A DNA stretch of 64,000 bases from an uncultured archaeon (GTDB lineage Archaea > Asgardarchaeota > Hermodarchaeia > Hermodarchaeales > Hermodarchaeaceae): positions 64,001-128,000 of the forward strand of contig CAYFXC010000001.1 in NCBI GenBank assembly GCA_964347045.1. Reading direction: 5' to 3'. The notes under the pieces were generated by a model. That model saw nothing but the letters and a program-made list of their open reading frames with translations. It was not told the origin of the DNA and did not search any database. Below are positions 2,261 to 12,305 of this stretch, piece after piece (within the stretch, counting starts at the first letter, position 1; every line of letters begins with the position of its first letter). A program made the translations under genes and the position numbers.

Positions 2261-3496
2261 TTATTTATTCAAGGTTTTGGGCACATAACTTGAAAGTGTC
2301 TTTATCCGACTATCGCGCTCTAACACATCTGCGACCATCGTCTTTGGCACGCTTAGTCGGATATTCTTTGTACGCCCATACCTTCCTTTACTGACTACTT
2401 TGGCATTAACAAGACCAATCGCATCTAAATCATTAATGAGATCACTCACTCGTCGTTGAGTAAGAGGATCCATGCCTAGTTGAGTGCAAAGGTCTCCATA
2501 AACGTCTTGGACTTCCCCGGTTACCGGATGAGGATGTTTATGCCGTTCTAACAGGTATACCGCATAGAGAACTAATTTTTGTTGAACAGGTAGAGTACGT
2601 AACACTTCGAGAACCGTATCACGTTCAATACTTAATCGCGCTTTTTCTACATGCTCCACCATAATCTCGTTACTGCCCTCACGTTCAGCGATCTCTACTG
2701 CAACTCGTAAAAGATCAAGGGCACGCCGCGCATCGCCTTCTTCTCTTGCTGCTAGTGCTGCGCAAAGGTTAATCACTCCTGGCTCTTCTAAAATACCTTC
2801 TTTTAAACCCATTGAGCTTCGACGACGCAAGATATCCTGCAGTTGCAAAGCTGTATATGGATGAAATATCACCTTTTCTTCACTCAAACTACTTAGCACT
2901 CGAGGATCAAGATACTCAGGGAACCGCAGATCGTTGGAGATACCAATCAAACTTACACTCGCCTTAGATAGTTCATAATTTATACGGGTAAGTTTGTAGA
3001 GCGTATCGTCACCACTTTTTAGAACAAGTCTGTCGATTTCATCCAATACAATAATCGTTAACAAGTCTTGGCTTTCTAATAATTCGATGAGTCTAGAATG
3101 TACTTCGTCTGTTGGAAGGCCTGTAAAAGGTACTTTTTGTCCTAACTCTGCACAAATTCGAGCGAGTACTCGATAATCGGTGTCGACATTGCGACAATTC
3201 AGATAAACTGCTTTGAAGGGTAACTGGAGTTCTCCAAATTTTGTTGCTAGTTCTCGTAGTACATATCGAGTCACAGCTGTTTTTCCTGTTCCAGGTTTTC
3301 CATATACAAATACGTTGGATGGTCGGCTCCCTTTCAACCCTGTAGCTAATATGCTTCCAATTTGAGTAATTTGATCATCCCGGTGAGGCAAAACATCAGG
3401 CACATAAGAATGCCAGAGCACTTTTCGATCCTCAATGAGTGTCGGACCTGCACTGAGTCGATCGAAGATTCTATCAAGTGGTCGGGGGTCGTCCAT
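2261..3496 (-). CDS. cdc6: Orc1/Cdc6 replication initiator (origin-associated copy)
   Basis: YVPDVLPHR, Walker A GKPGTGKT, Walker B IVLDEID, GDARRALDLLR, C-terminal wHTH with SKGRYGRT; ORB elements upstream. Confidence 0.97.
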   Translation of the reverse strand: MDDPRPLDRIFDRLSAGPTLIEDRKVLWHSYVPDVLPHRDDQITQIGSILATGLKGSRPSNVFVYGKPGTGKTAVTRYVLRELATKFGELQLPFKAVYLNCRNVDTDYRVLARICAELGQKVPFTGLPTDEVHSRLIELLESQDLLTIIVLDEIDRLVLKSGDDTLYKLTRINYELSKASVSLIGISNDLRFPEYLDPRVLSSLSEEKVIFHPYTALQLQDILRRRSSMGLKEGILEEPGVINLCAALAAREEGDARRALDLLRVAVEIAEREGSNEIMVEHVEKARLSIERDTVLEVLRTLPVQQKLVLYAVYLLERHKHPHPVTGEVQDVYGDLCTQLGMDPLTQRRVSDLINDLDAIGLVNAKVVSKGRYGRTKNIRLSVPKTMVADVLERDSRIKTLSSYVPKTLNK

Positions 3497-3736: not shown

Positions 3737-3758
3737 CCCCCCTTCATTTCCACTGGAG
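3737..3758 (-). promoter_or_regulatory. Origin recognition box (ORB)
   Basis: Minus strand CTCCAGTGGAAATGAAGGGGGG matches archaeal ORB consensus with G-string. Confidence 0.9.
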
Positions 3759-4062
3759 AATGATTCTAAAGGCTTATTCATGTGGAAATATTAGTTAACA
3801 TGTTAACAACACGTGAACCATCTAAAATCATGGAAAAAACCCTTGAAAGTTGAAATACAGCACGGAGAACCCTTATTTTTTGTTAATTCTTTAATAGAAC
3901 CATTATACGTACCAGACTCTAATAGATGAACATCAGAGCGCATTTTCATCTTCACATGAAATTCAACACTGATCAGTTCACACCGTCACACTTTTATTAT
4001 TGTGAACACGCCAGACTAGTTGGGACATGGAGAGCTAAGTAGATAACAGTGGGCATGGAGCA

Positions 4063-4518
4063 ATGAAGAAACGGAAACAAAAAATCACCATCGAAGGGCT
4101 GACAATCGAAGGCAAATCTTGTGACATTACCATTACGTTCAATGAAGGTCTCCCCTCTTCAATAACCGAATCCATTGCAACCGCATTACAAGCAACAGAC
4201 GAACAGACAAAAGCAGTTGAAGGCCTTCCCGAAACCGCTGAAATACCAGACTATGAATCTTGGACAGTCCGGCAGAAAGTTCGTTACATCGTTCTTCGCA
4301 ATTGTCGTCACGGCTGGTTCACCTCAAGAGATATTCAGGAACTTTATGAGCGCACCTTTCACCCACCCATACCCTTGGCCACTGCCTCAACCTACCTTGC
4401 ACGCATGCACAAGGAAGGCAGTTTGACAAGAAGAGGATCTGCTGCTCAACGTGAATATCGTGTCAACATTGAAGATCTTACTGATGAGATTGCTGCAATT
4501 CTAGCAAATAAGACATAG
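4063..4518 (+). CDS. Origin-embedded winged-helix protein
   Basis: C-terminal wHTH-like segment WFTSRDIQELY...LATASTYLARM...LTRRGS..REY; lies between ORBs. Confidence 0.75.
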   Translation: MKKRKQKITIEGLTIEGKSCDITITFNEGLPSSITESIATALQATDEQTKAVEGLPETAEIPDYESWTVRQKVRYIVLRNCRHGWFTSRDIQELYERTFHPPIPLATASTYLARMHKEGSLTRRGSAAQREYRVNIEDLTDEIAAILANKT

Positions 4519-4646
4519 TGACCAAAATTTTTGATCTACGATTTTTAATTCATAAAAATTTAGCACTATAGTAATAAACTTTTTACACTAATGTGAATTT
4601 AAAAAAAGAATTAACCTAATAGTGGTTTGATCAGATGCTGGTTACT

Positions 4647-4667
4647 CCCCTTCGTTTCCACTGGAAC
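4647..4667 (-). promoter_or_regulatory. Origin recognition box (ORB)
   Basis: Minus strand GTTCCAGTGGAAACGAAGGGG. Confidence 0.92.
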
Positions 4668-4849
4668 TCGAAGAACAAGAAAAGTTGGTGGTTGTTTTTT
4701 TAAGTTCGAAGAATCTTCCCCAGTTGTTTTCACACTATCTTCTATAAATAGTTTACAGTCTCTCAATAGCGTATTTTAGTGTTCTAGATAATGGTTTTGC
4801 GCATTTTACGTTAAGCTGAAAGGGTAACAAAATAGTCAATAAATAAGAA

Positions 4850-4870
4850 GTTCCAGTGGAAATAAAGGGG
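4850..4870 (+). promoter_or_regulatory. Origin recognition box (ORB)
   Basis: GTTCCAGTGGAAATAAAGGGG, inverted relative to 4647-4667. Confidence 0.92.
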
Positions 4871-4882
4871 CTTATCTAATTA

Positions 4883-5179
4883 CTAAGCTACTAGCTGATA
4901 GTAAACAGATGGTCGTCCTCGACGGCCATTTCTTTCTACATACTTCTCTACTACTCCAGCGATCAGGAGATTCATCAAGGTATCATATACGGTTGTCCTG
5001 GGTATGCCGGTTTTAATAGTGATATCTCCACGGGTGAGAGCGCCTTCATCGCGTAAAAGACCGGTTATATGGTTTTTGACGTCTACATGTTCTGTAGGTC
5101 GCACTTGTGATGTACGAGCACGCATTTTGGTCTTCTGTGAACCACGTGATGTTTGTTGAGAAGTTCGGGTAGTAGCCAT
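4883..5179 (-). CDS. Small TrmB-like winged-helix DNA-binding protein
   Basis: LTRGDITIKTGIPRTTVYDTLMNL...RRGRPSVYY; basic N-terminal tail. Confidence 0.75.
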   Translation of the reverse strand: MATTRTSQQTSRGSQKTKMRARTSQVRPTEHVDVKNHITGLLRDEGALTRGDITIKTGIPRTTVYDTLMNLLIAGVVEKYVERNGRRGRPSVYYQLVA

Positions 5180-5234
5180 AAAACCACAACTCTACGTCTA
5201 GATAAATATCGGGTATTTATATTAGTTGTGGATG

Positions 5235-5248
5235 ATTTCCACTGGAAC
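5235..5248 (-). promoter_or_regulatory. Mini-ORB (no G-string)
   Basis: Minus strand GTTCCAGTGGAAAT, identical to the core of the 4850 ORB. Confidence 0.8.
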
Positions 5249-5250
5249 TT

Positions 5251-5277
5251 ATTGAATTCAATGAAATAAATGAGTTC
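5251..5277 (+). repeat. 9-bp repeat cluster 1 (3 units)
   Basis: ATTGAATTC AATGAAATA AATGAGTTC. Confidence 0.7.
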
Positions 5278-5317
5278 ATTTTTTACTAAAATAAGAATCA
5301 TTTCGTTAATGAAGGCA

Positions 5318-7642
5318 TTATTGAATCTTGGATCGCGCAACCAGAGATTGACCAGCAGAGGTCCCTGCATCACCAGGAGGAATATTCCGGTGCATGAGAA
5401 ATTCTAATCCCTCCTTTTCAATTGCTAGACGAATGGTACGTGTAAGTATCTTATTATACCCTACTCCACCGGAAAATCCAATTTTAGTTATGCCATGCGA
5501 TTTTGCCGCGCCAATAGCCATAGTTGCTAGAGCTTGACCTAGACTATGATGTGCTGCTAATGCTAGATCGGGACCAGGGAATTTTGTTCTATTTTGTAAG
5601 ACTTGGTCTAACAATGCTCTTGTTATTAGTACCTGTGATTTTCCTTGTTGTTCAATCGGTATTTGTAGGCGAAGATTTGGTTGACGGGTACCCTTGTTTG
5701 CATATGATTCAAAGTGGATAGCGGGTTCTCCCTCATAGGTTCGTAGATAGGAAACTTGTAGAAGAGCTGCGAGTGAATCCAGGACTCGACCAGTGCTGGA
5801 AGTTAATGGGGTATTTATATCTTGAAAAATCTGCGTGAGTGCAATTGTAAGCTCGGTTGGTCCTTGGGGTAGTGCTGTCTTTGATTCCTTTTGAAAGAGT
5901 TTATTCAATTCTTCTTGAGAGTAATTCTTTGATAGTATACCCAGCAACATTCTGAAAGGGTATTTAGCGGCCAGATCTCCGCCAGGCATAGGATGTGGTT
6001 CCAGAAATGCTGATCGAATGTATTGACTAGCATTTCCGGTAAGAATCTCTCCACCCCAAATGGTATTATCAGGACCGTAACCAGCACCATCACAACAAAT
6101 GGCTACTATCTCTTCGTTGAGTGGAAGCTTGAAATCCGCAAGAAGGGTCGCGAGGTGTGCATGATGATGCTGTACTTGAATAAGTGGAATTTCGTGCTCC
6201 TTCGACAAATCAGCACCATACTTAGTAGTGAGAAAATCAGGGTGTAAATCACAGGCCACGGCATCAAAGGCAGAAACACGTAGTAATTGTTGTAGGTGGG
6301 CCAGACTTTCTTGGAGATAACTTAACGACTCAACGGTATCAATATCTCCAATGTGTTGCGTGAGGTAAATGCGTCTATTATGGTAAATCGCACCAGTGTT
6401 TTTCTCTAAGGCACCAAGGGATAGGATCGGTGGACCTCCCTCCGCGGTATCTATGGGTTCAGGTGTGTATCCTCTAGAACGACGGATAATCAATCCTTGG
6501 TCGAATATGGGAATTACAACGGAATCATCACATCGTTGATAGATTGTTCGATCATGAGTAAGAAAGTAGTCTGCCATCTTCATGAAACGTTCTTGAAAGG
6601 TTGAAGCGTGGATGATAGTGGGTAATCCAGAAGGATTAGCGCTAGTCATAACCAAGGCAAGATCATGGAGGTCTTCAAATAAACGAAGGTAAATGCCTGA
6701 ATAGGGAAGCAAAACGCCAATCGTATCAAGACCTGGAGCAAGACTGGGAGCCAAAGGAAATGGGTTGAGCTGGTTTAAAACTAAAATTGGACGCCGCCAT
6801 GATAACAATAGTTGTTCTGCTGTAGCATCCACAAATGCATATTCTCGTACCTTATCAAGATCTTTGGACATGATAGCCAATGGTTTATGTGGTTTTTTTC
6901 GTAATTCACGTAACCGTTGGATTTGTGAATCAAGAGTTGCTCGAACAGCAAGATGAATACCTCCTAAACCCTTGATTGCCACGATTGCCCCCTCATTCAA
7001 CAGTTTTACAACTTCGACAAAAGGATCAGCTACCTCAATTAGAGAGCCATCTTTACCGAGTAGCTTAAACTGCGGACCACAGCGGGGGCAGCAGATGGTT
7101 TGAGCATTATAACGGCGATTAATTGGATTGTAGTATTCAGAATCACAATCTTCGCAAAGGGGAAAGTCGACCATTGTGGTTCGTTCACGATCATATGGAG
7201 TGTCTGAAACCGTTGTATAGCGGGGACCACAAATAGCACAACAAGTCATTGGATATTGATAATGACGGGATTGAGGGTTATTCATATCATCAATACAATC
7301 GGTACACACAGAGATATCAGCAGGAATTACAGACCCACCCGCTTTTTGTTCATTCTTAGAAATGCGAATCTGAAAATCCGTAAATTCTTCTGTTGGGGGT
7401 CGCCAAAGCGTTTGGATACTGTCAATCACAGCTAGGTACGGCTTATCAATTTCAATGGATTCAATAAATTCAATAATTTTCTTTTTTTCCCCTTCAACAA
7501 CAATTTGAACAGCCGAATTCCCAGTGTTCAAAACATATCCAAGCAAACCACGTTTCATAGCTTGGGCATAAATAAATGGACGAAACCCAATTCCTTGCAC
7601 GACACCGACAACTCGAATTTCAGCTTGTTGGATATTCGTCAC
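5318..7642 (-). CDS. hypF: Hydrogenase maturation carbamoyltransferase HypF
   Basis: Acylphosphatase domain GVVQGIGFRPF, two Zn fingers, KGLGGIHL, HHHAH, DGAGYG, PPGDAG; start moved to GTG 7642 behind GGAG because the longer ORF overlaps the next gene. Confidence 0.95.
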   Translation of the reverse strand: MTNIQQAEIRVVGVVQGIGFRPFIYAQAMKRGLLGYVLNTGNSAVQIVVEGEKKKIIEFIESIEIDKPYLAVIDSIQTLWRPPTEEFTDFQIRISKNEQKAGGSVIPADISVCTDCIDDMNNPQSRHYQYPMTCCAICGPRYTTVSDTPYDRERTTMVDFPLCEDCDSEYYNPINRRYNAQTICCPRCGPQFKLLGKDGSLIEVADPFVEVVKLLNEGAIVAIKGLGGIHLAVRATLDSQIQRLRELRKKPHKPLAIMSKDLDKVREYAFVDATAEQLLLSWRRPILVLNQLNPFPLAPSLAPGLDTIGVLLPYSGIYLRLFEDLHDLALVMTSANPSGLPTIIHASTFQERFMKMADYFLTHDRTIYQRCDDSVVIPIFDQGLIIRRSRGYTPEPIDTAEGGPPILSLGALEKNTGAIYHNRRIYLTQHIGDIDTVESLSYLQESLAHLQQLLRVSAFDAVACDLHPDFLTTKYGADLSKEHEIPLIQVQHHHAHLATLLADFKLPLNEEIVAICCDGAGYGPDNTIWGGEILTGNASQYIRSAFLEPHPMPGGDLAAKYPFRMLLGILSKNYSQEELNKLFQKESKTALPQGPTELTIALTQIFQDINTPLTSSTGRVLDSLAALLQVSYLRTYEGEPAIHFESYANKGTRQPNLRLQIPIEQQGKSQVLITRALLDQVLQNRTKFPGPDLALAAHHSLGQALATMAIGAAKSHGITKIGFSGGVGYNKILTRTIRLAIEKEGLEFLMHRNIPPGDAGTSAGQSLVARSKIQ

Positions 7643-7722
7643 GGTGTCATCTCCTTGCTTCATCGATTTTCGCAGAGTATTAATTCTTTTGGAGTTATTA
7701 TCTAATAGTAAATGGTATCGGT

Positions 7723-8328
7723 GTGTGTTTTTCTGTGAGTGAATTTCGTGTACCAACACCAAAGGAACTACAGGACCTACGAAAGAAGGTTGGACTTACT
7801 CAGGCTGAACTAGCGGAGCAAGTGGGTATCAGTCAATCACTTGTTGCGCGTATTGAAAAAGGCCAGGTTAATCCAAGTGTAGCTACACTCAAACGCATCC
7901 TTAGCGTTATAGAGAAGCAAACAAAAATTCATTCAAATCTTCGAGATCTAATGAAGTGGAAAACGCAATCTTCCAAGCTCAATCCGTTAATCTGGGTTAG
8001 CCCTGAAGATAAAGTAAGACGTGCAGTAATCCTCATGAGACGTCATGGAATTTCACAGCTTCCAGTGCTTAAAGGAAATAACTCGATTGGTTCTATAAGT
8101 GAAGGTACAATAATCAGGCAACTTATGACTATGGAGTCGCAGAAGGTATTTTCGCTTTCTGTCAGAGAAATCATGGAAGACCCATTTCCAACAATTGACA
8201 TACGGGAAAATGTGGATAAAGCTCTCTCAGAAATCGCTTCCGGGATTGAAGCAATCTTAGTATTCGATGAAGACAGACCCGTTGGGATAATCACAAAAAT
8301 TGACATAATTGCTTTTACAAAAATTTGA
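7723..8328 (+). CDS. XRE-family HTH + CBS-domain transcriptional regulator
   Basis: LRKKVGLTQAELAEQVGISQSLVARIEKG plus CBS pair (GISQLPV, GIITKIDI). Confidence 0.9.
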   Translation: MCFSVSEFRVPTPKELQDLRKKVGLTQAELAEQVGISQSLVARIEKGQVNPSVATLKRILSVIEKQTKIHSNLRDLMKWKTQSSKLNPLIWVSPEDKVRRAVILMRRHGISQLPVLKGNNSIGSISEGTIIRQLMTMESQKVFSLSVREIMEDPFPTIDIRENVDKALSEIASGIEAILVFDEDRPVGIITKIDIIAFTKI

Positions 8329-8337
8329 AACTTAGAC

Positions 8338-8364
8338 TAACTCAATAATTTCATTAAATTCATT
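8338..8364 (-). repeat. 9-bp repeat cluster 2 (3 units)
   Basis: Minus strand AATGAATTT AATGAAATT ATTGAGTTA, upstream of the AAA+ ATPase. Confidence 0.75.
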
Positions 8365-8438
8365 ATTCTAATTTAGTTTTTTATCTCCAATACAATCAAT
8401 AATTTTTTAACAGAGAAAACCCCTCTCAGAGGTTAGTC

Positions 8439-9758
8439 TTGGATGTGTTGGATCTGAGTGAACTTGATCGATTAGTCGAGAGAACACAAAAATTTGATGA
8501 ACAGATGCTATCGAAATGGGGCTTCAAAAATGAACGCATCGAACTCTTTGGAATAGATTCAGCGGAATTGTACGTAGTTCCGGAAGAAGAAGCCCTTGCA
8601 ATTAAACGAGCTGTCAATTACCTTCGAAATCAAACTGCGAGCGTAGTTGTTTCAGGTCCACTGGGTGCTGGAAAGACTACATTCTTAGAGATGATTCAAC
8701 AGTCACTCAATCGACTACCCAATGTACGCGCAATCCGCCTTGAAGGAGTTAGTTCTGCAGACGCACTTATTGATGATCTTGTCCATGCTAATCTTGGAGA
8801 ACAGACTGTTCGTAGCTTCTTGATTGAAAAAGTCGGTGTTAGAGTAGTTAGAAGCGGTTCAATAGCTAAACGGTTATCTCGTTTACTGTTGGCTCTTAGA
8901 ACAGACGCAGAAGAGAATGGAACCTCGTATGTTTTATTGATTGACGAATTTCGTCAACTGGAACGACAACGACCTGATAATCGTGTACGAATAGTTGATA
9001 CACTATTACGAATGGTGAATGACAAAACGAGGGATGGACGCCGTTATCTTGTTCTAGCATTAGCAGTGATCACCAGAGTTGGAGAAAGTGCAGTCAGAAC
9101 CATCGAACTCCTTTCATCTGTGGGAGAAACCTTGGGGCATGGAAGTAAGTCAGCAATTCGACGAAGATTTGTTGAGATTTATGATATGCGTAGGATGAAA
9201 AAAACTAGTGCAATGAAAGTAATGCTTTGGAGACTGGCCCATCTAAAGGGAGCTATGGATCAAATTAACAAAGAACCTGAAAAGAGTGTTGATATGAATT
9301 CATCAGAGATTAGAGATTTACTAAACCCATTCACTGCCGATGCGCTAGAAGCCATTTACAATTATTCAGGAGGAAATCCTGGAATTATGCTTGAACTAGT
9401 CTTAAGATGTCTTCAGGATGCAATTCGCGGTGCTGAAGTGTTAATCAATGATGGCTATTCAATGGAACAAGTATTAACAGTGTATCATATCGACTCAGAA
9501 TATGTTCAGCAGTTTGTTCAAAAAGAGGTAACTCGAGCACGAGCAGAATTTTCTAACTTCCAAACTAATCTCTTAGGCTTTTTATCTGTACCCCGGTCTC
9601 TTGATGAAATTGAAACATGGCTGCAGAGCCAGGAACGTTCATGGGAAAGCGTGTTGGAAGATTTCGACTTATTTGAAAAACAAGGACTCATTTACAGCCC
9701 TGAAGCAGGGCAGATACAAGCCACTGAACTATGGACAAAAGGATCCACATTTGTTTAG
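8439..9758 (+). CDS. AAA+ ATPase (ExeA/initiator-like) with probable C-terminal wHTH
   Basis: Walker A GPLGAGKTT, Walker B VLLIDEF, SAIRRRF (Arg finger), FTADALEAIYNYSGGNP lid. Confidence 0.8.
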   Translation: MDVLDLSELDRLVERTQKFDEQMLSKWGFKNERIELFGIDSAELYVVPEEEALAIKRAVNYLRNQTASVVVSGPLGAGKTTFLEMIQQSLNRLPNVRAIRLEGVSSADALIDDLVHANLGEQTVRSFLIEKVGVRVVRSGSIAKRLSRLLLALRTDAEENGTSYVLLIDEFRQLERQRPDNRVRIVDTLLRMVNDKTRDGRRYLVLALAVITRVGESAVRTIELLSSVGETLGHGSKSAIRRRFVEIYDMRRMKKTSAMKVMLWRLAHLKGAMDQINKEPEKSVDMNSSEIRDLLNPFTADALEAIYNYSGGNPGIMLELVLRCLQDAIRGAEVLINDGYSMEQVLTVYHIDSEYVQQFVQKEVTRARAEFSNFQTNLLGFLSVPRSLDEIETWLQSQERSWESVLEDFDLFEKQGLIYSPEAGQIQATELWTKGSTFV

Positions 9759-9770
9759 GGTGAGAACTAA

Positions 9771-10139
9771 ATGTCAGCAACTGATCTTATCAGGGAACGA
9801 ATGAAAAAGGAAAAAGATCAAAAACCGAAAACTCAGGAGAAAAAGCAATCAGCTGAAACTCGGGAAATCGAATTAGAAGAACTGTCAACAAGAGTTGGAG
9901 ACTCCGGATTGAAGCGGCTGCGAATCGAAAGCGAATACGAAGGACGCCGAACAATAAGTGCAAGTGTACCTGCTTGGATTAAAGCAGCTTTAGATTTCGT
10001 AGCATTGGCTGCGACGAAGGCAGGTCATGGCCAATATGGCGGTTTTGGTGGAAAATCACGATTTATTGCTGAGGCACTTGGAGAGAAACTAAAATCAGAT
10101 TTTCCTGAGGTTTATAAGAAACTTCAACGTGAAAGCTAG
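9771..10139 (+). CDS. Ribbon-helix-helix protein with charged N-terminal tail
   Basis: RRTISASVP (strand) AWIKAALDFVA (helix A) GKSRFIAEAL (helix B); 12 bp after the ATPase stop. Confidence 0.65.
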   Translation: MSATDLIRERMKKEKDQKPKTQEKKQSAETREIELEELSTRVGDSGLKRLRIESEYEGRRTISASVPAWIKAALDFVALAATKAGHGQYGGFGGKSRFIAEALGEKLKSDFPEVYKKLQRES

Positions 10140-10162
10140 ACAGCTCAACCTAGTGAAATAAT

Positions 10163-10196
10163 TAATTTCATTAAAATTAATGAAATTATTGAAGTA
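10163..10196. repeat. 9-bp repeat cluster 3 (head-to-head, palindromic)
   Basis: TAATTTCATTAA-aa-TTAATGAAATTA (12-bp arms), continuing into the unit ATTGAAGTA at 10188-10196. Confidence 0.8.
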
Positions 10197-10278
10197 ATCG
10201 GTTTTATTCTGTTTCTAATTAATTTTAGAGTGAGCACTGTAATAAGATAGATTAGATTAGCTCTAAAGGTGAATTAAA

Positions 10279-10857
10279 TTGATACCCAATGATGTCAGAC
10301 GGGTTTGCGTGATTTCTTTTGATTTCAAACAACACAAAGGGGTGAACCAAACGCGAAAGACACGATTCTTTAGAGAACTCTATGGTTATACCCAACAAAT
10401 TAAACAACAACTAAAGGATGGCGAAATCGTTGTACGAACTTACCATTATCCTGGAGTTCTAGAACAATTGCCCTATACTAAACTTGGAAAAAGCGTATTA
10501 GCCGTCCCACCTGGAAATGAGGGTACAATTATCAAATTGCTCCGTGCCTATGATGAAGTAGAATTCTATTACTTCATTGGATGGTTGCCAACATCTCTTT
10601 GGCCAAGAAAAGATGATGTTGAAGCTATTACGGTTAACAACCTAATTGTAACGCATGGGTATCTTTCAATTGTAAAATACATACAGAATTCTGGGATGGA
10701 AATCATCCAGCATTCCGATCTTCTTGACGCTGGATTTGATATGAATTACCTCAGCCAGGCTGTTCAATATCTTACTAATAAAAAACTCCTCACAGAAACC
10801 CAAAACGAATTAAAATTAACGAGTAAAGGAAAACAGATCATAAGTCAAGTTGAATAA
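10279..10857 (+). CDS. Hypothetical protein (possible Cas2/PaaX-like ferredoxin fold + C-terminal wHTH)
   Basis: VCVISFDF...RFFRELYGY...LGKSVLAVP pattern; C-terminal LKLTSKGK typical of a wHTH wing. Confidence 0.55.
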   Translation: MIPNDVRRVCVISFDFKQHKGVNQTRKTRFFRELYGYTQQIKQQLKDGEIVVRTYHYPGVLEQLPYTKLGKSVLAVPPGNEGTIIKLLRAYDEVEFYYFIGWLPTSLWPRKDDVEAITVNNLIVTHGYLSIVKYIQNSGMEIIQHSDLLDAGFDMNYLSQAVQYLTNKKLLTETQNELKLTSKGKQIISQVE

Positions 10858-10878
10858 CTCAAAAAAAGCCAATAGATT

Positions 10879-10908
10879 CATGTATTCAATGAGTTCAATG
10901 AAATTATT
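10879..10908 (+). repeat. 9-bp repeat cluster 4
   Basis: CATGTATTC AATGAGTTC AATGAAATT; 10886-10908 is the exact reverse complement of 11527-11549. Confidence 0.8.
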
Positions 10909-11498
10909 CATTCAGGTTTGAGAGCTAGTGGCTGCGCAAGGGCCTCTATCAGCTGTAAAATCCTGTCTTGCGTCTGTTTAAGACTACTTAGATGAGTGGG
11001 GGTTGGTTTTTCTTTATTTGTCGCAACAATGTCATACTCACGTGCGTATCTTCGAATATCCTCCGCGAGATCCTGATATCGCATTAAAGAGGGCGTATCA
11101 AATAGACCTAAGTATCCTAGGAGAACCAGGGTGAAAACAGATTTTGAAACATTTCGACGGGCCTGGGCAAGTGATCGGTTGAACGCTCCTCTACTAACAC
11201 CGCCAAGTTTTCGTGCTGTTGTTTTTTGATCTCTTAAAGATGCTTTAGTCTGATAATCGATTCGTTTTCCACCAAAACCATCAAGAAGATAATCCAGAAC
11301 TAAGGTTTCAAGCTGAACCTGGGATAACTGGCTATTTTTAGCTAACATTTGAGTAATTGGGTCTTGGAGCATTCTACGCGCCCAAGAGCGCGTCTCCGCG
11401 ATTTCGTTTTTTTGCGGCAAATACCTATCTCCATGGATACAGTTTTGTATACGTAATAACGCTGCTCTTAAAAACTCGTTGGTGTTTAAAACTTTCAA
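10908..11498 (-). CDS. Hypothetical HTH-like protein
   Basis: 196-aa ORF with GVSRGAFNRSLAQARRN recognition-helix-like segment; flanked by 23-bp inverted repeats. Confidence 0.65.
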   Translation of the reverse strand: MKVLNTNEFLRAALLRIQNCIHGDRYLPQKNEIAETRSWARRMLQDPITQMLAKNSQLSQVQLETLVLDYLLDGFGGKRIDYQTKASLRDQKTTARKLGGVSRGAFNRSLAQARRNVSKSVFTLVLLGYLGLFDTPSLMRYQDLAEDIRRYAREYDIVATNKEKPTPTHLSSLKQTQDRILQLIEALAQPLALKPE

Positions 11499-11520
11499 CT
11501 ATTGGTCAAAAAAGATTAAT

Positions 11521-11549
11521 TTATTCAATAATTTCATTGAACTCATTGA
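11521..11549 (-). repeat. 9-bp repeat cluster 5 (3 units)
   Basis: Minus strand AATGAGTTC AATGAAATT ATTGAATAA. Confidence 0.8.
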
Positions 11550-11624
11550 TAAAGAAAGTAGTCTTTAAGATAAAATGAGGTTTTTATCCTTCTAGCGTAT
11601 TCTGAATAAGTGGTGGTTTAGGAA

Positions 11625-12305
11625 ATGTCTGGGCGAAATCTTATACCATCAGGTATTCCTTCTCTGGATGAGGTAATGGGAGGTGGGATTGGTGCCGGTG
11701 AGATTCTTCAAATCTTTGGACCTGGTGGAGTTGGAAAAACGACCCTTGCATTACAGTATACAATTAAAGCTACTCAAAATGGGAATCGGGTTTTCTATGT
11801 AAATTTAGAAGGTAAATTCCCGCTAGTTCGATTGAAGCAAATGACTTCTACTGAATTCAGTAAAATTTCTCCCTTGATTACAATTGTATCTCCAGGGAGT
11901 TTTCATGAACAATCAAAATTCGTTTCCAACCTTGATTCCTTACTATCACCAGATGTCACGCTATTGGTGTTTGACACCATTGTGTCCCATTATCGAAAGG
12001 AATATGGTTCTAATACAAATAACGTGATGTTGAATCGTAAACTGAATCAACAGTTTGGGCTCGTTGCCAGTGCAGCTCGATCTTCCAATCTTTCTGTTAT
12101 TATGGTTAATCAAGTTCGCGGGGATATTAGCAACGGAGATCACTTTCTGCCTGTTGCTGAATCAGTTACATCCTATTGGAGTACCTATAGTTTACAAATC
12201 ACTAGAGCTGAATCTAAGGGCTACAGAGAATTTAAGTTGACAAAGGGCAAAGAATCTGAATCTACAATTTTGGTGATGAGCTTACAATCATCAGGATTTA
12301 GATAA
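11625..12305 (+). CDS. radB: DNA repair and recombination protein RadB
   Basis: IPSGIPSLDEVMGGG, GPGGVGKTT, VFDTIVSHYR, VNQV; RecA core only. Confidence 0.85.
   Translation: MSGRNLIPSGIPSLDEVMGGGIGAGEILQIFGPGGVGKTTLALQYTIKATQNGNRVFYVNLEGKFPLVRLKQMTSTEFSKISPLITIVSPGSFHEQSKFVSNLDSLLSPDVTLLVFDTIVSHYRKEYGSNTNNVMLNRKLNQQFGLVASAARSSNLSVIMVNQVRGDISNGDHFLPVAESVTSYWSTYSLQITRAESKGYREFKLTKGKESESTILVMSLQSSGFR

Follow-up and report, generated by a model that had tools for sequence, protein, structure and literature searches.

An Orc1/Cdc6-fold ATPase, a probable ribbon-helix-helix protein and tandem 9-bp boxes beside the predicted replication origin of an Asgard archaeon

Outside SegAB, no archaeal system of cis-acting sites and trans-acting proteins linked to an origin has, to our knowledge, been described, and we know of no account of chromosome organisation and segregation in Asgard archaea, which are the closest prokaryotic relatives of eukaryotes known so far. 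The chromosomal SegAB operon of Sulfolobales encodes an ATPase followed by SegB, a small ribbon-helix-helix (RHH) protein with a flexible N-terminal region, of which residues 1–33 stimulate SegA (PMC8682754). Palindromic sites are located upstream of the operon, and others are concentrated around the locus and an origin, some of them within genes, and the chromatin immunoprecipitation (ChIP) peaks of SegB cluster around segAB and oriC1 (bioRxiv 10.1101/2025.02.07.637068). The systems delta-omega (pSM19035) and ParF-ParG (TP228) are likewise built from a tailed RHH protein and short tandem repeats in several promoter regions; the RHH protein binds both operator and centromere, and its tail stimulates the NTPase (summarised in PMC8682754). 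Here, we describe a locus of comparable layout in a 64,000-nucleotide stretch of DNA, referred to as the window, from an uncultured archaeon of the Hermodarchaeaceae (assembly GCA_964347045.1, contig CAYFXC010000001.1, positions 64,001 to 128,000). The locus is composed of an AAA+ ATPase gene, a gene for a tailed protein of 122 amino acids (aa) that probably has the RHH fold, and arrays of tandem 9-bp boxes, and it lies beside the predicted replication origin (oriC).

The locus resembles SegAB in being an archaeal chromosomal operon in which the ATPase gene precedes the gene of a small, probable RHH protein; this order of an NTPase gene, a 12-bp gap and a small DNA-binding gene is that of type Ib and SegAB-like cassettes. 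It differs from SegAB in the ATPase, which is of the ParA-type Walker class in SegA and an Orc1/Cdc6- or ATPase_2-fold AAA+ protein here. SegB has no sequence homology to the 122-aa protein (structure comparison Z 2.8), and its sites are 13-bp TCTAGA-S-TCTAGA palindromes with 39 ChIP peaks, compared with tandem 9-bp boxes at about seven sites in the present assembly. Delta-omega and ParF-ParG are plasmid systems with a ParA-family ATPase and, as repeats, 7-bp heptads in arrays of 7–10, whereas the locus described here is chromosomal, with three to four units of 9 bp, and the double role of the RHH protein and the action of its tail are only proposed. The arrangement of the boxes recalls MetJ of E. 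coli, of which one RHH dimer binds each short palindromic box, head to tail with a period of 8–9 bp and two to five boxes per operator; MetJ however has no ATPase partner, tail or origin linkage. The ATPase shares with archaeal Orc1/Cdc6 (1w5s/1w5t, 2qby) and ATPase_2 proteins (PAB2304, 2qen; SSO1545, 2fna) the AAA+ core, lid and C-terminal winged helix, additional helices between strands 2 and 3, and a gene position next to an origin. It differs from them in sequence (12–15% identity) and in its occurrence in few Asgard lineages, always paired with the RHH gene. We found no publication describing this family or layout; new here are the class of NTPase within the layout of RHH protein, tandem boxes and NTPase, and the linkage to an Asgard origin.

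By analogy with omega and SegB, we propose, at a probability of roughly 0.45, that the boxes serve both as operators and as a centromere-like field, and that an ATPase of a new class drives the handling of origin DNA marked by them.

Arrays of 9-bp boxes around the predicted origin

The ATPase and RHH genes form, as an initial annotation of the window had stated, a tight two-gene unit, which is conserved in the genus. The GGTGA motif in the 12-bp gap between them suggests co-transcription and coupled translation. Of the sequencing runs listed, only the probable source metagenome contains the stretch, and no RNA run does. The box unit has the consensus AWTGARWTN and is near-palindromic, with an 8-bp palindromic core, TGAATTCA, and one free base. 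Three units joined head to tail form an array of 27 bp. The arrays that the initial annotation had placed in the spacers around the gene pair, together with a fifth cluster at the origin, are all present, and we add two further sites, one within hypF (7448–7474) and one on contig C12. The elements of the locus are the following, mismatches being counted against the three-unit pattern:

3748–5247: predicted oriC with four origin recognition box (ORB) cores, TTCCASTGGAR, at 3748, 4656, 4851 (inverted) and 5237
5251–5277, plus strand: array 0, ATTGAATTC AATGAAATA AATGAGTTC, 0 mismatches
7448–7474, minus strand: array within the acylphosphatase domain of hypF, 1 mismatch, ATT GAA TTY ATT GAA TCC ATT GAA A.. 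encoding IEFIESIE
8338–8364, minus strand: array 1, 0 mismatches, 81 bp upstream of the ATPase start
8445–9758 (open reading frame (ORF) 8439–9758), plus strand: orphan AAA+ ATPase, 437 aa, with Walker A GPLGAGKT, Walker B LLIDEF, lid and C-terminal winged helix
9759–9770, plus strand: 12-bp gap with ribosome-binding-site-like GGTGA
9771–10139, plus strand: probable RHH protein, 122 aa, with a core invariant in 17 sequences
10170–10196, plus strand: array 2, 2 mismatches; an inverted unit lies at 10161, and the gene for a 192-aa protein begins 83 bp downstream
10879–10914, plus strand: array 3, 2–3 mismatches, in the spacer where two genes converge; it overlaps the stop codon of one of them, the minus-strand gene for a 196-aa protein
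11521–11547, minus strand: array 4, 1 mismatch, in a divergent spacer, 78 bp upstream of a RadB-like gene (11625)
Contig C12, 18023–18058 (locus L028:5024–5059): remote four-unit array within a divergent promoter

The arrays occur far above chance and are nearly private to the origin flank. The exact 12-mer AATGAAATTATT is found in the window only at four array sites, and at one mismatch it gives eight matches against 1.8 expected, a number that no shuffle attained. In the 2.58-Mb assembly (83 contigs, 89% complete), the three-unit pattern is matched 2, 6, 9 and 24 times when up to 0, 1, 2 and 3 mismatches, respectively, are allowed, compared with none at any level for the reversed pattern and 0, 0, 0–1 and 0–2 for shuffles of local composition. 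The genome-wide scan agrees with the clustering conjectured from the window: all nine matches at up to two mismatches are located at 5251–11547 or in the C12 array, against 0–1 in the controls. Of the approximately seven array sites in the assembly, six lie within 6.3 kb of the predicted origin. When 15 genomes of the genus were scanned at one mismatch, every placeable match was on the contig with the origin or at the orthologous GTPase promoter, the one that carries the C12 array here, and the reversed control gave none; the other matches, mapped in part, bear one of two recurring sequences. Repeated cis sites, upstream of the operon and restricted to the origin flank and one further locus, are thus present as in partition cassettes.

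Array 0 begins about 3 bp past the core of the fourth ORB (ORB4, 5237–5247), is kept in the spacers of 10/10 relatives and adjoins ORB4 in every one of them. Array 1 was found in 13/13 orthologous spacers and is followed by a conserved AT-rich block, the probable promoter. Array 2 is kept in relatives; together with its inverted unit (10161–10196), it gives the palindrome AATTTCATTAA-AA-TTAATGAAATT. Array 3, between convergent genes, has a three-unit match in most of the genus loci covering that spacer, and repeat units are visible in the others, in support of the cluster that the initial annotation had placed between convergent 3' ends. Arrays 4 and 3 taken together contain an exact 23-bp inverted repeat. 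The C12 array, the only one outside the origin flank, is conserved across the genus and is positioned between an operon for an unknown 272-aa protein and a Ras-family small GTPase and the gene of a GNAT (Rv0428c-like) acetyltransferase.

The array within hypF was compared in 13 genomes. Its three isoleucine codons are always ATT and its serine codon is TCC in 12 of the 13, the codon with the free ninth base of the unit is TTT or TTC, and the codons nearby show free synonymous variation. Since the synonymous sites are frozen except for the free base, the array appears to be under selection as DNA, and a chance origin is unlikely; the peptide IIEFIESIE is itself conserved, and therefore neither point is proven.

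The positions of the arrays can also be read as those of plain operators. Arrays 0, 1, 2 and 4 sit 72, 81, 83 and 78 bp upstream of start codons, array 0 being that of a TrmB/Lrs14-like gene. It is quite possible, and a close rival of the reading that we prefer, that the locus is a purely local transcriptional regulon, in which the RHH protein or another regulator of the island uses tandem-box operators at its own operon, at the TrmB/Lrs14-like, winged helix-turn-helix (wHTH) and RadB-like genes, at the XPD gene of relatives and at the Ras-like GTPase operon. The ATPase would then be co-regulated or co-regulating; the paralogue Orc1-2, reported as a damage-response regulator in Saccharolobus (PMC12490963), offers a parallel. 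Such a regulon would explain the start-codon distances, the operator-like size of the arrays, the flanking of XPD and RadB genes by arrays in relatives, the conserved remote array in a divergent promoter, and the array that each examined lineage has ahead of its RHH gene or operon, as autoregulation predicts. Against it stand the conserved arrays between convergent 3' ends and within coding sequence, and an ATPase conserved at 82–88% in the operon is unexplained by a simple repressor. The initial argument against a pure promoter-operator role is favored by these convergent and intragenic arrays; the four arrays 72–83 bp upstream of starts and the conserved one at a remote promoter are no less compatible with operators than with centromeres.

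The RHH gene is present in 14/14 other species of the genus. In 13/13 fetched loci from those species, the gene order is identical where the contig extends and the arrays occupy the same spacers, although the spacer sequence around them has diverged. The synteny with Cdc6-1 and the ORBs that the initial annotation had pointed to holds in all eight genus loci reaching those elements and on a contig of Ranarchaeia. There, the ATPase is approximately 55% identical, the RHH homologue follows directly, three ATTGAAWTT units lie upstream, and the pair with its boxes is 1.2 kb from Cdc6 and the ORBs. The Ranarchaeia locus L026 has its ORBs and Cdc6 at 12.5–14.2 kb, and around them seven arrays between 3.9 and 14.9 kb, of which one is between convergent genes (L026:7323) and one upstream of an Arf/Ras GTPase gene that neighbours Cdc6. 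The latter fits a regulon. However, the L026 arrays flank unrelated metabolic genes and yet stay around oriC, so that position seems to outweigh the identity of the adjacent gene.

The ATPase and RHH genes are not an obligate pair: there are three lineages in which the RHH gene and boxes lie beside Cdc6 and ORBs and no ATPase gene was found, in a search of the whole genome for G022 and of the locus for L032 and L033. G022 has three box matches genome-wide, one of them about 210 bp upstream of the RHH gene. The occurrence of RHH gene and boxes in lineages without a detected ATPase indicates that the boxes go with the RHH protein and not with the ATPase. The RHH protein is likely to be the box binder, and is the best candidate because no other island protein is encoded at all of the examined loci with arrays; the ATPase seems to be an addition to an RHH-box system. 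In the sister genus, the RHH gene, ATPase gene and arrays were not found in fragmented genomes that are 80–83% complete. The same genomes are also without detectable orthologues of the 196-aa protein and the CBS-HTH (helix-turn-helix) regulator of the island, and the 151-aa wHTH gene is in only one of them. The sister genus does not therefore single out the RHH protein, as the origin island may be unassembled there.

The conservation of the locus also bears on its origin. Initiator-clade AAA+ proteins and small DNA binders are common on mobile elements, and the locus could in principle be what is left of an integrated plasmid, virus or defence island that brought along partition or immunity genes. 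The ATPase has a marginal relative, P0138 (E 1e-4), which has upstream repeats and stands by a TraG/TrwB-like gene. We consider such a remnant very improbable, given the fixed position and vertical conservation across the genus and in other classes, and the absence of an integrase or transposase from the island. PADLOC returned marginal P-loop matches only, with no significant family, and a tblastn search of 72,556 plasmids gave no match for either the ATPase or the RHH protein. A defence, phage or mobile-element reading was rejected because of the fixed synteny in 13/13 genus loci, the lack of a defence family and the lack of a plasmid match.

The ATPase and the tailed 122-aa protein

The ATPase probably starts at the GTG codon at 8445, since its homologues have 437 aa. 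It matches Pfam ATPase_2 (PF01637; 38.3 bits against a cut-off of 33.2, residues 54–209), and also AAA and AAA_22. It has no match to Cdc6_lid (PF22703) or Cdc6_C (PF09079), whereas the two true Cdc6 genes of the window match both, and none to CbiA or AAA_31; its Walker A motif is without the deviant KGGxGK[ST] signature. A profile search of the PDB returned only ORC4 (E 0.0066). The predicted model (predicted local distance difference test, pLDDT, 81.7) is closest to A. pernix ORC2 (1w5s_A; Z 17.6, root-mean-square deviation 4.0, 292 residues aligned over 22–431), followed by PAB2304 (2qen, Z 16.7), Drosophila Cdc6 (7jgr_G, 16.6), Sso Orc1-1 (2qby_A, 16.4), TnsC (15.7) and MuB (14.1), and the top Foldseek matches are 1w5t and 2qby. 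The match spans the AAA+ core, the lid and the C-terminal winged helix, which is the Orc1/Cdc6 architecture. Based on the model, the ATPase is an initiator-clade AAA+ protein of the Orc1/Cdc6 or ATPase_2 type. The profile and fold matches place it outside the ParA family and in a clade of proteins that assemble on DNA. Members of this clade that do so include ORC, DnaA, TnsC and MuB. The absence of ParA noted initially thus holds for the local ATPase, with its GPLGAGKT motif and its fold, and not for the genome, which encodes five ParA/MinD-type proteins elsewhere.

In sequence, the ATPase is an orphan: among 1.84 billion representative proteins, no more than three attain E<=1e-10, namely its own cluster and two fragments, and the next relatives, P0136–P0138, are ATPase_2/AAA_22 proteins at E ~1e-4. 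Its homologues carry the labels Hermodarchaeia or Promethearchaeota. The gene is single-copy in the genome, and the identity of its product within the genus (82–88%) is near that of Cdc6-2 (81–90%) and above those of the DNA polymerase D small subunit (PolD-S; 62–84%) and the replication factor C large subunit (RFC-L; 62–72%). What might be a mobile-element cassette with a comparable arrangement is located at L036:850-2590. There, the gene of the relative P0138, an ATPase_2 protein of 391 aa, is separated by 7 bp from a downstream 97-aa ORF, and four or five copies of CCAAATATCCAAA lie ahead of it in both orientations; the contig also carries the gene of a TraG/TrwB-like coupling protein. The 97-aa protein bears no resemblance to the 122-aa protein.

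The fold of the ATPase raises the question of a function in replication itself. As a third, divergent initiator- or loader-like factor, the ATPase could act on an origin extended by RHH-marked boxes, which would be auxiliary origin elements, a sequestration or licensing switch, or a barrier by ORB4. The best structural matches, archaeal and eukaryotic Orc1/Cdc6/ORC4, are consistent with such a replication-control module, as are the proximity of array 0 to ORB4 in every relative, the single copy and high conservation of the ATPase gene, and its location between Cdc6-1 and Cdc6-2 in an island with PolD-S, RFC-L and RadB. We nevertheless regard it as improbable. The ATPase has no Cdc6_C or Cdc6_lid signature and its nearest sequence relatives are ATPase_2 proteins, and in its GGNPG motif a glycine takes what we presume to be the position of the sensor-2 arginine of Orc/Cdc6 (GDAR). 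In most of the Asgard lineages with this origin island, no such ATPase was found, and so it cannot be a core initiator. Furthermore, the arrays are on one side of the ORBs and up to 6 kb away.

The 122-aa protein is formed by an N-terminal basic helix (DLIRERMKKEK), a charged linker predicted with low confidence, a β-strand (RRTISASVP), an α-helix, a GFGGKS turn and a second α-helix. The order strand-helix-turn-helix in its core is that of RHH proteins. Approximately the first 58 residues make up a lysine- and glutamate-rich tail of low pLDDT. In the structure comparison of the monomer model, which has helices at residues 68–83 and 94–110, at least 12 of the top 50 matches are RHH proteins aligned over residues 59–117 (Z<=4.3), among them TraM, pCXC100 ParB, NikR, TacA, SvtR, SegB (Z 2.8) and Arc. 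Its language-model neighbours in the Atlas include MetJ, RHH_1 and RHH_4 clusters at 0.85–0.87, below the trusted value of 0.9. We consider it probable that the protein has the RHH fold. Of the tailed RHH adaptor proposed initially, the tail (residues 1–58) is present, and the fold is weakly supported (Z<=4.3, pLDDT 60). The family is small and restricted to Asgard archaea, with 73 clusters, all at E<=1e-25, and the profile search gave close members only.

In all cases with the same box, the recognition-strand region of the RHH protein, TISAS.P.W.K, is unchanged, which speaks for the dual operator and centromere-like role. The four ATPase-bearing lineages (this genus, L026, L027 and, as a fragment, L034) share the N-terminal motif S..DLI(K/R)E, which is absent or vestigial (P0129) in the three lineages without a detected ATPase. 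This co-occurrence suggests that the tail contacts the ATPase, in analogy to residues 1–33 of SegB and SegA. A complex prediction for the ATPase with two RHH copies gave a score of 0.10 and a mark of 0.32, which is no verdict and counts as evidence neither way.

A proposed origin-side field and its ATPase

In the mechanism that we favor, RHH dimers would bind side by side on the TGAATTCA boxes spaced by 9 bp, three per array, like MetJ on met boxes and omega on heptads. The bound protein would repress or tune its own operon and neighbouring promoters, and would also build a nucleoprotein field on the origin side. We propose such a field because six to seven arrays are packed into 6–11 kb flanking oriC, non-promoter places included. 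In this genus and in Ranarchaeia, an Orc1/Cdc6-fold ATPase would have joined the operon, directly ahead of the RHH gene. The N-terminal basic helix of the RHH protein there probably recruits or stimulates the ATPase, similar to the action of the SegB, ParG and omega tails on their partners. Assembled on array-marked DNA, the ATPase might then organise, pair or segregate origin DNA, or gate licensing. We infer the binding of the boxes by the RHH protein, its contact with the ATPase and any role in the cell. A role beyond that of an operator is favored by the arrays between convergent genes and inside genes, the persistence of the field around oriC where the neighbouring genes differ (L026), and the highly constrained ATPase in the operon.

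Several observations weigh against this proposal. With only three to four units, the arrays are operator-sized, and both the constant 72–83 bp between four of them and start codons and the conserved remote array at the promoter of the Ras-like GTPase operon and the GNAT gene fit a plain transcription factor. Other DNA-binding proteins of the island (CBS-HTH, TrmB/Lrs14-like, two wHTH and the 196-aa protein) are alternative candidates for binding the boxes. The RHH assignment comes from a monomer model of pLDDT 60; the 122-aa protein had no meaningful match in Pfam or PDB sequence searches, and its alignment to E. coli MetJ by hhalign (KKITVSIPL to RTISASVPA, E 0.17) is not significant. In addition, the genome has the five ParA/MinD-type genes elsewhere. 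The initiator-like partition motor suggested at the outset is upheld in its initiator-clade fold; as for its task, we know of no initiator-clade AAA+ protein that segregates DNA. Similarly, the arrays, the gene pair and the linkage to oriC agree with the segregation or origin-control module of the initial annotation, while segregation, DNA binding and ATPase action by the module are predictions drawn from sequence and analogy. In its strongest form, the proposal would make the locus a new Asgard machine for segregating or organising origins, in which the RHH protein marks the arrays and recruits an Orc1/Cdc6-clade ATPase that moves, pairs or partitions new origins; we consider this unlikely.

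The locus brings together, in compact form, an orphan ORC-shaped ATPase, a small DNA binder and a defined site of 27 bp. Should the ATPase act on DNA marked by the arrays, the range of uses known for initiator-clade AAA+ proteins would be widened, and the finding would bear on the diversification of ORC-like proteins before eukaryotes. If the locus is only a regulon, it would be the first regulatory circuit of an origin island in Asgard archaea, and one linked to a Ras-like GTPase operon.

The replication island and neighbouring genes

The first 17 kb of the window are a replication island of an Asgard archaeon, according to gene calls and Pfam profiles. PolD-S is followed by a DUF2240 protein, Cdc6-1, the ORBs interleaved with two small winged-helix genes, and hypF. 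After hypF come the CBS-HTH regulator, the ATPase, the 122-aa gene, the 192-aa gene and, on the minus strand, the 196-aa gene, and then a RadB-like gene, CDP-archaeol synthase, an OST3-like gene, Cdc6-2 and RFC-L. The features of the island not listed above are:

2261–3496, minus strand: Cdc6-1, Orc1/Cdc6 initiator flanking the predicted origin (Pfam Cdc6_C 1.2e-30, Cdc6_lid 3.5e-23, AAA_22)
4063–4518, plus strand, and 4883–5179, minus strand: small wHTH genes between ORB cores
10279–10857, plus strand: 192-aa protein with a C-terminal winged helix, weakly matched (HTH_45 E 0.0012, Sso10a_fam E 0.005)
10908–11498, minus strand: conserved 196-aa protein, possible HTH (RGAFNRSLAQARRNV), start codon uncertain

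Cdc6-1 is 90–95% identical across the genus. The assembly contains six ORB cores, four of which are in the predicted oriC, and as the sole ORB cluster, 3748–5247 is the sole recognisable origin in it, judged by these motifs. The ORB layout is the same in relatives within the genus; the GC skew of contig C1 was uninformative for the origin. The promoter region of the TrmB/Lrs14-like gene (5180–5250) is nearly invariant across the genus. It has an inverted repeat, CCACAACT...AGTTGTGG, around a TATA-like ATATAAATA, adjoins ORB4 and array 0, and may be a composite control region that links the origin to the TrmB/Lrs14-like regulator. In the short divergent spacer between hypF and the CBS-HTH gene (7663–7722), a block, AGAGTATTAATTCTTTTGGAGTTAT, is kept in all relatives. 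The block is unrelated to the 9-bp boxes and is probably a shared promoter or operator of the two genes.

The 192-aa protein is 48–64% identical within the genus. Its N-terminal half (RRVCVISFDF...RFFRELYGY) gives the impression of a Cas2-like pattern, which no profile supports. The 196-aa protein is 68–88% identical within the genus and has no match in Pfam, NCBIfam or PADLOC; similar genes are located beside oriC in G022 and L026. In most relatives, a gene for a 639-aa XPD/Rad3-type helicase (DEAD_2, HBB, Helicase_C_2) lies between the 196-aa and RadB-like genes, with an array on each side. A comparison of window positions 11498–11625 with L013:11895-13814 places the difference in this spacer: the helicase is missing there from this genome and from G012, and a single array is left. 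One query did not find the helicase elsewhere in this 89%-complete assembly. It is possible that the gene was lost by deletion between the two flanking arrays.

An origin island beside ORBs recurs in several Asgard classes (L021, L032, L033 and L026). It contains Cdc6, a winged-helix protein of about 151 aa, a TrmB-like protein, a CBS-HTH protein, an unknown protein of 166–196 aa and the RHH protein. Genes for POR, an aminotransferase, Alba and glycine cleavage are often found near it.

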